DNA from: Clostridiales bacterium
GTDB lineage: Bacteria; Bacillota; Clostridia; Oscillospirales; Oscillospiraceae
Assembly: GCA_012521555.1 (NCBI GenBank)
Contig: JAAYMC010000024.1
Location: forward strand, 1,437 to 65,436
Length of the DNA stretch: 64,000 nucleotides
Reading direction: 5' to 3'
Position 1 is the first letter of the stretch; every line of letters begins with the position of its first letter. The notes below the pieces were generated by a model, which worked only from the letters and a program-made list of their open reading frames with translations, was not told where the DNA came from and made no database searches. A program made the translations under genes and the position numbers. Below are positions 12,116 to 15,835 of this stretch, piece after piece.

Positions 12116-12308
12116 GCAGTTTCCTCCTTTGTGGATGAGTGGGAAATGATTCATCTGAAGCCAATTATAGCATGCCTGTCTTCGTATGCAAGGCGGGATA
12201 AGCCGCCGCGAAAATATCTGTGAAAAAATCTTTTCTTTTGACGGGATTTGTGTTTTGATTATCATAAATAAAGCCGCGTGCGCGGCTTTTGTGAAGGAGG
12301 CGTTCATA

Positions 12309-12965
12309 ATGCCGGCATTCGACTACAAAAAAGCGTACAAGGACCTTTACGAGCCGAAGGCGGCGCCGGCCATCATCGACGTGCCGGCCATCAGCTTCAT
12401 CGCCGTGCGGGGCGAGGGGGACCCGAACGAGGAAGGCGGAGCGTATCAGAACGCCGTCGAGCTGCTCTACGGCGTCGCCTACACGCTGAAAATGAGCGAG
12501 AAGGCCGGATACAAAATCGACGGATACTTCGACTACGTCGTCCCGCCGCTGGAGGGGTTCTGGTGGCAGCCGGGCGTGAAGGGCGTCGATCTCACGCACA
12601 AGGAAAGCTTCCACTGGATTTCCGCCATCCGCACGCCGGACTTCGTCACGGAAGGGGACGTGAAATGGGCGGTGGAGACGGCCTCGAAAAAGAAAAAGCG
12701 GGACTTTTCCGCCGTTGAGTTTCTCACGATTACGGAGGGGCTTTGCGTCCAGTGCCTGCACGTCGGCCCATACGACTCAGAGCCGGAGACCGTCGCCGCC
12801 ATGCACCGGTTTATCGACGAAATGGGCTACGAAACGGACTTTTCCGACACGCGCTTTCACCACGAAATTTACCTGAGCGACCCGCGCAAGGTCAGCCCCG
12901 AAAAACTCAAAACCGTGATCCGGCACCCGATCAAAAACCGTTACGCGGCGCTCCGGAAGGCCTGA
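12309..12965 (+). CDS. GyrI-like small-molecule-binding domain protein
   Basis: FDYKKAYKDLY, GEGDPN, VVPPLEGFWW, LHVGPYDSE, HHEIYLSDPRK. Confidence 0.85.
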   Translation: MPAFDYKKAYKDLYEPKAAPAIIDVPAISFIAVRGEGDPNEEGGAYQNAVELLYGVAYTLKMSEKAGYKIDGYFDYVVPPLEGFWWQPGVKGVDLTHKESFHWISAIRTPDFVTEGDVKWAVETASKKKKRDFSAVEFLTITEGLCVQCLHVGPYDSEPETVAAMHRFIDEMGYETDFSDTRFHHEIYLSDPRKVSPEKLKTVIRHPIKNRYAALRKA

Positions 12966-13035: not shown

Positions 13036-13064
13036 TTGACAAGATGGAAATTGTATGGTATCTA
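13036..13064 (+). promoter_or_regulatory. sigmaA-type promoter
   Basis: TTGACA (13036-13041), 17-nt spacer, TGn-TATCTA extended -10 (imperfect). Confidence 0.65.
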
Positions 13065-13068
13065 GTAA

Positions 13069-13095
13069 TTAGCACTCTAACCCGTCGAGTGCTGA
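13069..13095. promoter_or_regulatory. CIRCE element (HrcA operator)
   Basis: TTAGCACTC-TAACCCGTC-GAGTGCTGA, 17/18 match to TTAGCACTC-N9-GAGTGCTAA, just downstream of the -10 box. Confidence 0.85.
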
Positions 13096-13290
13096 CGAAA
13101 GTGAACAAAACAGTGTGACTGTATAGCAAATACAGAGCTGTCTTCCAAAAGAAGAGAGAAACGGTTTTGTGAAGCTTTTGCCTTGTATCGGGTGAACTTC
13201 GCGTTATCCCGCCGGATAACATTATCTTCCCATCAAAGCTGAATGAAGTTCATGACAAGGCGCTGTATCTGGTATACGGCGCCTTTTTCT
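13096..13290 (+). ncRNA. candidate structured leader or small RNA ending in an intrinsic terminator
   Basis: Nested stems identified by eye (see findings) and terminator AAGGCGCTGTAT-CTGGT-ATACGGCGCCTT-TTT at 13257-13288. No recognised family. Confidence 0.45.
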
Positions 13291-13344
13291 GTCTTCTTTT
13301 GCGTCAGCACCGGCGAAAATCCTAAAGAAGAACGAGGTGATGAA

Positions 13345-15192
13345 ATGCAGGCTTTGATACTCGCAGCCGGAATGGGGACGCGGCTGAAGGACCTGACGAA
13401 AAACGCCGCGAAATGCATGGTCAAGGTGGACGGGAAACCGCTGATTGAGCGGATGCTCTGCCAGCTTGACGAGCTGGAGCTGAGTGAGATTCACATCGTC
13501 GTCGGATACATGGCGCGGGACGTCATCTCCTTTGTCCGTTCCCTGAAGATACGCACTCCCGTCCGGTTTATTGAAAACGAACTGTACGCGACGACGAACA
13601 ACATCTACTCGCTGTACATGGCGCGGGAGGTGCTCAAAAAGGACGACACGCTGCTGCTTGAGTCCGACCTCATCTTGAGCGACGGCATCCTCGGCCGGCT
13701 CGCGGACAGCCCGCACCCGAACGTGGCCCTCGTTGCGCCTTATGAAAGCTGGATGGACGGCACCGTCGTCAAAGTCGACGGGGAAGGGAATATCACGCGG
13801 TTTATCGAGAAGAAGGAGTTTGATTTCCGGGAGATCCCGAGCTATTACAAGACCGTCAACATCTACAAGTTCAGCCGGGAGTTTTCCGAGCGGTATTTCG
13901 TGCCGTTCCTCGCCGCCCACATCGAGTCTGAGTGCAAAAACGCGTATTACGAGCACGTTTTGAAGGTGCTGAGCTTCATCGACGGCTCCCTGATAAAAGC
14001 GGAAATTCTGGGCGGCGAGGCATGGTATGAAATCGACGACGCGCAGGACCTCGATATCGCCGAGTCCCTCTTTACGGACTTAAAGTACGACAAAATCAAA
14101 AGCCGCTACGGGGGTTACTGGCGATACCCGAAGCTTTTGGATTTCTGCTACCTTGTCAATCCCTACTACCCGCCGCGCCGGATGCTGGACGAGCTGAAGG
14201 CGAATTTCGAGGCGCTGATTTGCAGCTACCCGTCGGGCATCGAAGTCAACAGCCTGATTGCGGGGAAATACTTCGGCCTGAAGAAAGAGCACGTCTGCCC
14301 GGGTAACGGCGCGGCCGAACTCATCCGCTCCCTGATGGGGGCCCTGAGCGGCAACGTCGGCATCGTATATCCCACTTTTGAGGAATACCCGAACCGCCTG
14401 TGCAAAAACAAAATCGTGCCGTACTACCCGAAAGGCAGGGATTTCACGTATACGGCCAAAGACCTGGCCGATTATTACGGGCGGTTTGCCGTCGAGGCCG
14501 TTATCCTCGTCAACCCGAACAACCCGACGGGCTTTATGCTCGGCCGGGACGAGGTGCTCGCTCTCGCCAAATGGGCGGGGGAGAGAGGAATCCGGCTTGT
14601 GGTGGACGAGTCGTTTGTCGACTTTTGTGACGCGCCGGAAAAGCAGACCCTGCTCTCGGAGGCGATTTTGCAGGACAACACAAACCTTGTCGTGATAAAA
14701 AGCATTTCCAAGTCCTTCGGGGTGCCCGGGCTGCGCCTCGGGATTGCCGCAAGCGCCGACGAGGAGCTCATTCGTTCCCTCAAGAGCGACGTGGCGATCT
14801 GGAACATCAACTCCATCGCCGAGTGCTTCCTGCAGATTTTTGAAAAATACAAAAAGGATTACGACCAGGCCCTTGAGACATTCCGCCTCGTCCGCAGGCA
14901 GTTTATCGAGAAGCTGCGCCATGTCCCGAATCTCAGGGTGCTGCCCACGCAGGCCAACTTCGTCCTGTGCGAAGTCCTGGGCGGGTGCTCGGCGGAAAAG
15001 CTCGCCGAGACGCTGCTGTGCGAGCATAACATCCTGATAAAGGACCTTGGCGGCAAAAAGGGCATCAGCGGCGAGTATATCCGCGTGGCCGTCAGAACGC
15101 GGGAAGACAACAGCCGTCTTGCCGCCGCCTTGAGCAAGGTCCTCGGGCAGTCCGGCCGGGTCAGGCAGTACAATCTCGGCATGAGCGGATAG
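13345..15192 (+). CDS. fused LicC-like nucleotidyltransferase and class I/II PLP-dependent enzyme (CobD/HisC-like)
   Basis: N-terminus MQALILAAGMGTRL...KCMV...TNNIYSL...LLESDL...WYEIDD. C-terminus GNGAAELI, NPNNPTG, VVDESF, KSISKSFGVPGLRLG (PLP lysine). GAGGTG RBS. Confidence 0.85.
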   Translation: MQALILAAGMGTRLKDLTKNAAKCMVKVDGKPLIERMLCQLDELELSEIHIVVGYMARDVISFVRSLKIRTPVRFIENELYATTNNIYSLYMAREVLKKDDTLLLESDLILSDGILGRLADSPHPNVALVAPYESWMDGTVVKVDGEGNITRFIEKKEFDFREIPSYYKTVNIYKFSREFSERYFVPFLAAHIESECKNAYYEHVLKVLSFIDGSLIKAEILGGEAWYEIDDAQDLDIAESLFTDLKYDKIKSRYGGYWRYPKLLDFCYLVNPYYPPRRMLDELKANFEALICSYPSGIEVNSLIAGKYFGLKKEHVCPGNGAAELIRSLMGALSGNVGIVYPTFEEYPNRLCKNKIVPYYPKGRDFTYTAKDLADYYGRFAVEAVILVNPNNPTGFMLGRDEVLALAKWAGERGIRLVVDESFVDFCDAPEKQTLLSEAILQDNTNLVVIKSISKSFGVPGLRLGIAASADEELIRSLKSDVAIWNINSIAECFLQIFEKYKKDYDQALETFRLVRRQFIEKLRHVPNLRVLPTQANFVLCEVLGGCSAEKLAETLLCEHNILIKDLGGKKGISGEYIRVAVRTREDNSRLAAALSKVLGQSGRVRQYNLGMSG

Positions 15193-15202
15193 AGGTCATG
15201 GC

Positions 15203-15835
15203 ATGATGGAGAAAAAAGAAAAAGAGTACACAATGCTGCACTTCCTGGCAGACATACCCAATCTCTGTTCCCTCGCGGGGCTGCTCTGCTCGTTTCTCGG
15301 CGTCTATTTTGCAATCCGCGGGCAGTTTCACTATGCCCTCGTGGGCGTTTTGTGGGCCGTCGTCTTCGACTGGCTGGACGGGATGGTCGCCAAAAGGATG
15401 AAAGACAGGGACGATAAGCACCGCGCCGTGGGCGTGCAGCTCGACTCGCTGATTGACATCGTCAGTTTCGGCGTCTTTCCGGCCGTCTTTCTGCTCAGTT
15501 TCGGGGAGTTCAAACCCGCCTTCATCCCGGGCGCGTTTCTCATCGTGGGCGGCGCGGCGCTGCGGCTCGGCTATTTCAACGTCTTCGGGATGATCGACAA
15601 GCACACGTACAGGGGGCTTGCGCTGGACAACAACGTCCTCCTGCTCGCGCTGATTTTCCTGCTGGAGCGGCTGATCCCGCGCGGGGTGTTTGCCGCCGTC
15701 CTCTACGCCGTCCTGATGGCGCTGCTCGCGCTCAATCTGGCGCCCATCCGCACGTATAAGTTCGGCGGCAAGTGGTTTTACGCGCTGCTGGGCTATGTCG
15801 TCGTCATGACGGCCTGCTACGTCTTTCTTTTGTAA
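15203..15835 (+). CDS. CDP-alcohol phosphatidyltransferase family protein
   Basis: DWLDGMVAK...GVQLDSLID matches the DGxxAR...GxxxDxxxD signature; multiple TM segments. Confidence 0.9.
   Translation: MMEKKEKEYTMLHFLADIPNLCSLAGLLCSFLGVYFAIRGQFHYALVGVLWAVVFDWLDGMVAKRMKDRDDKHRAVGVQLDSLIDIVSFGVFPAVFLLSFGEFKPAFIPGAFLIVGGAALRLGYFNVFGMIDKHTYRGLALDNNVLLLALIFLLERLIPRGVFAAVLYAVLMALLALNLAPIRTYKFGGKWFYALLGYVVVMTACYVFLL

Follow-up and report, generated by a model that had tools for sequence, protein, structure and literature searches.

We found that the interval at 13096-13290 of the window (the whole stretch of 64,000 nucleotides of DNA that was analysed) is best explained as the 5′ leader of a two-gene operon under HrcA/CIRCE control, and not as a separate gene. 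Judging from its sequence and that of its homologues, this leader would act in cis as a terminator/antiterminator attenuator in series with HrcA control, a reading that we hold to be reasonably probable. It matches no catalogued RNA family and is most likely undescribed. A preliminary description of this DNA had offered two readings of the interval, a heat-induced sRNA or an attenuator/riboswitch; the comparative evidence reported below favours an attenuator, whereas neither a trans-acting sRNA nor a ligand riboswitch gained support. The features discussed are collected in Table 1.

Table 1. Positions of the promoter, operator, leader elements and genes in the window
Feature	Position	Strand	Description
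Sigma-A-type promoter	13036..13064	+	-35 TTGACA 13036-13041, 17-bp spacer, -10 TATCTA 13059-13064; read directly
CIRCE operator (predicted HrcA site)	13069..13095	.	TTAGCACTC-N9-GAGTGCTGA, one mismatch to consensus
5′ domain, three-way junction	13096..13180	+	MFE fold
P1 (outer stem)	13105-13111/13164-13170, extended by 13096-13102/13174-13180	+	ACAAAAC/GTTTTGT, extended by CGAAAGT/GCTTTTG
P2 (hairpin)	13119-13124/13130-13135	+	CTGTAT/ATACAG
P3 (hairpin)	13141-13145/13151-13155	+	TCTTC/GAAGA
Block A, putative antiterminator strand	13130..13139	+	ATACAGAGCT; complementary to 13259-13268 at 9/10 positions
Second domain	13180..13262	+	Hairpin GTTATCC 13203-13209/GGATAAC 13214-13220 within TGAACTTC 13193-13200/GAAGTTCA 13245-13252
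Intrinsic terminator	13257..13288	+	12-bp stem AAGGCGCTGTAT/ATACGGCGCCTT (13257-13285), loop CTGGT, T5 run to 13288
Post-terminator read-through segment	13289..13344	+	Helix TCTTCTTT 13292-13299/AAAGAAGA 13324-13331, then SD 13334-13339
Regulated operon	13345..15835	+	Two genes; Pfam
Gene 1	13345-15192	+	615-aa NTP-transferase + class I/II aminotransferase-fold fusion (nucleotidyltransferase/PLP-enzyme); Pfam
Gene 2	15203-15835	+	CDP-alcohol phosphatidyltransferase; Pfam

The CIRCE promoter, the operon and the distribution of the cassette

The spacer of the window promoter ends in TGn at 13056-13058, and the TTGACA-17-TGnTAT(A/C)TA arrangement is also present in homologous loci. The consensus promoter scanner omits this promoter because its -10 element ends in A. 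Only 4 nt separate TATCTA from the CIRCE operator, which was searched for as the inverted repeat TTAGCACTC-N9-GAGTGCTAA and is the sole match within the window, where the chance expectation is 0.01. Three CIRCE sites were found genome-wide, the other two preceding groES-groEL and hrcA. Moreover, CIRCE was found in all 19 homologous loci, and HrcA (PF01628) scored above its cut-off in all 8 genomes tested, that of the window and 7 more that carry the cassette. On sequence grounds, the cassette promoter is predicted to be under HrcA control, and its start site is predicted at ~13071, just inside CIRCE.

The leader interval is flanked by a GyrI-like gene ending at 12965 and by the ATG of gene 1 at 13345, which follows the SD sequence GAGGTG. 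The longest open reading frame of gene 1 starts at ATG 13243 (649 aa), and this 649-aa form is present in the protein collection (P0001). The 34 additional codons overlap the terminator, are not preceded by an SD and are missing from those homologues that begin MQALI. Because of the SD and these homologues, we take ATG 13345 to be the true start of gene 1. The GyrI-like gene, of a small-molecule-binding type, immediately precedes the cassette in the window (12186-12965) and in L153 (556-1191)/L154, and not in the other loci. The only Rfam match of the window at gathering score is a tRNA gene at 820-892 on the minus strand.

Homologues were gathered via a protein search of species genomes, metagenome contigs and a large protein collection. 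Wherever the protein was 62-86% identical and enough upstream DNA was available, the locus carried the cassette of promoter, CIRCE, leader and operon, and there were 19 distinct loci with promoter, CIRCE, leader (~210-430 nt) and fusion gene. The gene for the CDP-alcohol phosphatidyltransferase comes next in all cases with a record of the downstream gene, namely the window and 9 loci. These 19 leader sequences, several of which are closely related, come from metagenome contigs, from the cultured Herbinix luporum (locus L155) and from Clostridia-type MAGs, whose labels include Desulfotomaculaceae, Syntrophomonadaceae, Oscillospiraceae and Anaerovoracaceae; where a source was named, it was mostly an anaerobic digester, biogas or sludge sample. 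Each genome checked had one copy of the cassette and neighbouring genes varied among loci. Since the flanking genes differ, the unit behaves as a cassette. One locus (L008) lies on a contig labelled Burkholderiales (JBLNCA010000037.1, 447 kb) and has a Firmicutes-style AT-rich cassette with CIRCE, in a genome that encodes HrcA; its label or binning may be wrong.

Outside these loci the leader was not found. Profile HMMs of two conserved leader blocks matched only the 19 among ~170 loci, and once in the window's genome, and the terminator pattern occurred exactly once in each of 7 carrier genomes; neither search revealed extra copies of the motif ahead of other genes in the genomes checked. A DNA search of 60 relatives with the leader returned only a CIRCE match, and the downstream operon was present in one of the 60, there without the leader. 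Homologues of 60% identity or less (Akkermansia, Bacteroidales, Clostridium, Bacillus and others) had no CIRCE and no match to the leader profile. Eight upstream regions of such homologues lie behind other coding sequence or contain no recognisable leader.

The preliminary description had seen no convincing promoter between the terminator and the ATG, and this was borne out: the scanner detected no sigma-70-like site there, nor any promoter-like site at the same place in 18 of the 19 loci. The exception is L008, where TTGACG-17-TATAAT (~2412-2440; 11/12 match) lies downstream of the terminator and may bypass the attenuator in that lineage. In the window clade, the helix TCTTCTTT/AAAGAAGA links the terminator tail with the purine run that precedes the SD. 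L005 (GUUCC.UUUGG/CCAAA..GGAAC) and L151 (GUUCU.UUUGA/UCAAA...AGAAC) both retain this helix, and two compensatory changes distinguish their versions of it. It is possible only in read-through RNA and so favours a cis-acting leader, a point that is only suggestive because its energy is not better than that of shuffled sequences (z = 0.12). We assign the interval to a cis-acting leader because the element never occurs without the operon, lacks a downstream promoter in nearly all loci, persists where the terminator has decayed and has this helix in the window clade.

Further features of the segment after the terminator were observed. Two sequences are complementary to TCAGCACC (13304-13311), the SD region GGTGATGA (13336-13343) and the right arm of CIRCE, GTGCTGA (13089-13095); TCAGCACC itself is conserved in L005 and occurs in L151 as TCGGCACC. 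It could be an anti-SD element or make a long-range contact in the read-through mRNA. Between terminator and SD, the AT-rich group (L006-L010, L074, L155, L159-L164) has a block AAGCATGCGATTTTCATG, which persists in L160 and L163 despite the decay of their attenuator. The TTTTCAT of this block can pair with GTGAAAA of the SD/spacer in ~9/13 loci, and a second, translation-level control is possible in this group. The stretch directly after the U-run (13289-13300 in the window) reads CTGTTCTCTTTGA in L151 and CTGTTGTTTTTAA in the AT-rich group, and resembles a boxA-type NusB/NusE site as in rrn leaders.

Folding domains of the leader and a putative antiterminator strand

All helices listed in the preliminary description, namely both parts of the outer stem, the two hairpins within it and those of the second domain, were recovered at their coordinates by direct reading of the sequence (Table 1). 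The proposed three-way junction is the RNAfold MFE structure of 13096-13181 (-24.5 kcal/mol, z = -3.88), and none of 200 shuffled sequences folded as well. Rfam 15, searched at gathering and permissive thresholds, gave no family match in the interval (best scores of 14-18 bits against thresholds of 35-86), so the RNA remains unrecognised, as had been claimed; no recurrent match was obtained in 10 homologous loci. T-box, RAT and ANTAR elements were considered and rejected on their layout and the lack of Rfam matches.

The 5′ domain has 39.5% G+C in a genome of 60.7% G+C, and its closing stem P1 is kept A/U-rich even in G+C-rich hosts. An unbiased scan for the best ungapped 9-mer complement recovered the P1 motif pair in 9 of 18 leaders. 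Within segments registered by hand on the structure tested, a procedure that biases the counts towards that structure, 92% of cells were paired and 4 pairs had changed on both sides. Compensatory changes in P1 included C-G to U-A (L164) and G-C to A-U (L162, L009). In AT-rich leaders the 3′ strand of P1 is found much farther downstream (block CATCTGTTTTGTATTTAAAT), beyond an insert whose length varies; a nearer U-rich run was tried as the partner in these loci and was not better than shuffles, the farther CTGTTTTGT block pairing better. MAFFT and RNAalifold applied to the 5′ domains misaligned the P1 strands and returned only P2.

The other helices of this domain are less widely shared. P2 was found only in the window clade (window, L151, L152 and L153), and is absent from L162 and L164. 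P3 is variable and in L152 and L153 is replaced by a hairpin on the other side of P2. In L005, the closest relative, the 3′ strand of P1 is deleted, P3 is missing and the antiterminator is weakened. Covariation among homologous leaders, suggested earlier as a check on the fold, was seen as compensatory changes in P1, but it was limited in the antiterminator and consisted of wobble changes only in P2.

The second domain gave a mixed result: its helices are present and its fold is more stable than shuffles (z = -3.42), but its outer stem is not conserved in the closest relatives. Its closing helix, GCCTTGT 13180-13186/ACAAGGC 13255-13261, extends into the base of the terminator. Only L005 and L151 retain the inner hairpin, and they do so without the TGAACTTC/GAAGTTCA stem; the position is occupied by other hairpins in L152 and L153 and by unrelated inserts of 25-190 nt in other loci. 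Because the domain is only partly common to L005 and L151, with its outer stem lost, we read it as a putative spacer or lineage-specific addition.

The U-tailed terminator of the preliminary description was found by the terminator scanner as well. Its 12-bp stem contains 6 G-C pairs and is followed by TTTTT, with a 5-nt loop, an energy of -18 kcal/mol and z = -4.53. Seventeen of the 19 loci conserve this terminator, as AAGGCGCTGTAT...ATACGGCGCC and then TTTTTCTGT, with 94% of cells paired and 3 pairs changed on both sides.

Besides the terminator, the near-universal features of the leaders are an A-rich stretch right after CIRCE (AAGTrAAyAAAAyrG) and block A. The latter has the consensus TGTGCAGCGCT, lies 33-50 nt after CIRCE and closely mimics the 3′ arm of the terminator, and it is therefore complementary to the 5′ arm. 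An earlier suggestion had been that the upstream CTGTAT pairs with the terminator 3′ arm; this is not the conserved pairing, which instead joins block A (ATACAGAGCT, 13130-13139) to the 5′ arm GGCGCTGTAT (13259-13268). In 17 of 19 loci block A can pair with the 5′ arm over 10-15 bp. The duplex energies of this antiterminator range from -10.7 to -21.6 kcal/mol and are thus similar in magnitude to those of the terminators (-8.8 to -20.9).

For the pair counts of antiterminator and terminator, the three strands were anchored on their cores, which gave a gapless alignment. In the antiterminator register 88% of cells were paired (12 columns, 17 leaders) against 19-54% when the register was slid; two of the pair-count alignments used in this work were registered by hand on the structure under test. 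Changes on both sides were confined to 2 pairs and 3 cells, and the observed percentage paired was also reached by 23 of 500 shuffles; covariation is limited here because both strands are highly conserved. Two loci are informative in detail. In L164, block A reads CAGTGCC, the 5′ arm GGCACTG and the 3′ arm CAGTGTC, a change of C-G to U-A that involves all three strands, and L074 has changed G-U to G-C at a terminator-loop position that pairs only in the antiterminator. The sequence of block A and its flanks is conserved beyond the needs of pairing, for example as GTGTTAATGTGCAGCGCTAAATCTA in the AT-rich group.

The two remaining loci have decayed. L160 (991-1200) has lost block A and has a terminator hairpin without a U-run, while in L163 (860-1200) block A is present twice (GCAGCGCT and GCAGCACT) and the terminator 5′ arm is missing. 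Each has lost one partner and a working terminator, and both fit the attenuator model as natural losses. Together, the conserved complementarity shows the pattern that a functional terminator/antiterminator pair predicts, and it would be hard to explain otherwise. We found no uniform anti-antiterminator partner for block A across lineages.

Attenuation model, possible triggers and rival explanations

In the proposed mechanism, HrcA would leave its operator and transcription would start at ~13071. The 5′ domain of the nascent RNA would be closed by the A/U-rich stem ACAAAAC/GUUUUGU, and block A (AUACAGAGCU, 13130-13139) would be held partly paired in the CUGUAU/AUACAG hairpin. As long as the 5′ domain stays folded, the hairpin at 13257-13285 and its U-run would form, and transcription would stop ~55 nt before the start codon, leaving an RNA of ~220 nt. 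If the 5′ domain opened, block A would pair with the terminator 5′ arm GGCGCUGUAU, the terminator would be blocked and the polymerase would read through into the operon. We infer that these two folds alternate in vivo.

The modelled folds bear on this mechanism. In nascent RNA ending before the 3′ arm, the antiterminator was within the MFE structure in 11 of 17 leaders and was disfavoured in the other six (window, L152, L153, L162, L010 and L159). The window, L152, L153 and L162 have a strong P1, and their antiterminator penalty was 5-7 kcal/mol at 37 °C; the modelling fits a folded 5′ domain that would withhold block A, as an anti-antiterminator. With the full terminator present, the terminated fold won in most leaders, and in the window it was favoured by 5-7 kcal/mol at all modelled temperatures. 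The terminated ~220-nt RNA probably accumulates, and may well do so after heat shock.

What would open the 5′ domain is a separate matter. We favour heat, because of the heat-shock operator, the low G+C content of the domain and the closing stem that is kept A/U-rich; heat-labile folding of the weak, A/U-rich 5′ domain is put forward only tentatively as the trigger. A full temperature-sensing attenuator, in which melting at heat-shock temperature would free block A and the operon would depend on two independent heat signals in series, HrcA release as the response to protein-folding stress and physical temperature as sensed by the RNA, seems to us unlikely. In silico there was no sharp thermal switch, the gap between the folds shrinking smoothly with temperature. 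Within the limited literature covered, a search for a CIRCE-linked attenuator or a termination-level thermometer found no precedent.

Several other explanations were weighed against the attenuator. The CIRCE promoter could drive an independent, heat-induced and trans-acting RNA of ~220 nt, with the operon expressed from elsewhere. The well-structured RNA and the strong terminator (-18 kcal/mol, T5 run) agree with such an sRNA, as does the terminated fold being the predicted ground state in most leaders, from which a short RNA should accumulate with HrcA inactive. However, the element was never seen away from the operon and travels with it between genomic contexts, 18 of 19 loci lack a promoter between terminator and ATG, a plain sRNA would have no use for the conserved complement to the terminator 5′ arm, and L160 and L163 retain leader and gene despite a decayed terminator. 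We consider an independent sRNA quite unlikely, and a trans-acting role of the ~220-nt RNA found no support. Still less likely, in our judgement, is that there is no switch, only a constitutive and partly leaky terminator or a stabilising structure, with the complementarity as a relic of duplication. The complementarity is present in 17 of 19 leaders although the intervening sequence can no longer be aligned, all three strands changed in concert in L164, and the two leaders without one partner are also without termination signals. These observations outweigh, for us, the weak covariation statistics of the antiterminator, the search for a conserved sensor, which found none, and the resemblance of block A to the 3′ arm, which is close enough for an old duplicate.

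Two further alternatives retain the switch and differ in what it senses. In an OFF-type metabolite riboswitch, the P1-closed domain would bind CTP, a phospho-amino-alcohol or a CDP derivative and lock block A away. The layout is alike, in that a terminator and a competing strand come after a multi-helix domain closed by P1; the absence of a regulator gene from the cassette fits a protein-free sensor; and the U-rich 3′ strand of P1 could be a NusG-type pause site. Pause sites of this type are reported for many riboswitches (PMC11602163). Such a riboswitch is nevertheless improbable, given that neither the window leader nor 10 homologous loci gave a corresponding match in Rfam 15, that only block A, the P1 strands and the purine run are common to the leaders, and that junctions and inner helices are not conserved, with 25-190-nt inserts in other loci. 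When the leaders were compared for a riboswitch core, over 19 sequences only, P1 covaried and the junctions and inner helices differed between lineages. The alternative sensor is a widely conserved RNA-binding protein that would act on block A or on the A-rich/U-rich strands, in the manner of TRAP or PyrR. Conservation of block A and its flanks beyond pairing needs, and of the P1 strand sequence even in G+C-rich hosts, is what such a protein would leave, but no candidate gene travels with the cassette, neither TRAP-like triplet repeats nor a layout of the RAT or ANTAR type could be seen on inspection, and Rfam gave no PyrR-site match. We regard a protein-mediated attenuator of this type as unlikely.

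Relation to known regulatory systems and biological meaning

The regulon of HrcA and CIRCE usually consists of a few chaperone operons with short leaders. The cassette resembles the CIRCE operons groESL and hrcA-grpE-dnaK in that an inverted repeat of the perfect type directly follows a sigma-A promoter, and its genome also uses this repeat for groES-groEL and hrcA. In chaperone operons, CIRCE lies ~30-45 nt from the start codon, whereas here a structured leader of 250 nt with a terminator stands between them, and the genes encode lipid head-group enzymes and not chaperones.

As an attenuator, the leader would be similar to the trp (TRAP) and pyr (PyrR) leaders of B. subtilis, in which a distant upstream strand competes for the 5′ arm of an intrinsic terminator, further structure decides whether that strand is free, and there is no leader peptide. 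Unlike them, it has no (G/U)AG repeats, PyrR loop, Rfam match or linked regulator, and its promoter is HrcA-controlled. With OFF riboswitches such as SAM-I it shares a multi-helix domain closed by P1, after which come an antiterminator and a terminator that exclude each other, in a self-contained, cis-acting unit; the antiterminator strand, however, lies inside the P1-closed domain, whereas in the SAM-I type it is the 3′ strand of P1, and the leader has no conserved ligand-binding core and matches no catalogued family.

In the window clade, CUGUAU, AUACAGAGCU, GGCGCUGUAU and AUACGGCGCC follow the 1:2 / 2:3 / 3:4 logic of trpL and hisL. Unlike those leaders, none of the 19 has an SD-led or conserved small open reading frame, and ribosome-mediated attenuation through a leader peptide was ruled out on this ground; the earlier statement that the window leader holds no credible open reading frame agrees with the absence of an SD-led one there. 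If the thermal reading is right, the leader would be comparable to ROSE and fourU thermometers in having a conserved, weak, A/U-rich helix on a heat-shock-controlled transcript. The known RNA thermometers, to our knowledge, mask the ribosome-binding site and act on translation, whereas the helix described here would govern transcription termination.

CIRCE here drives a long structured leader with a putative terminator switch ahead of lipid head-group enzymes, in a cassette that moves between anaerobic Firmicutes. If the switch is real, it would be an uncatalogued cis-regulatory RNA whose core, block A against the terminator 5′ arm, can be tested by mutation. Were its trigger a metabolite, this would point to the still unproven product of the operon. 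Were it temperature, a transcription-level thermometer would be added to the heat-shock response, acting on termination and not on the ribosome-binding site, and membrane head-group synthesis would be tied to that response. Either result on the trigger would help settle what the operon makes.
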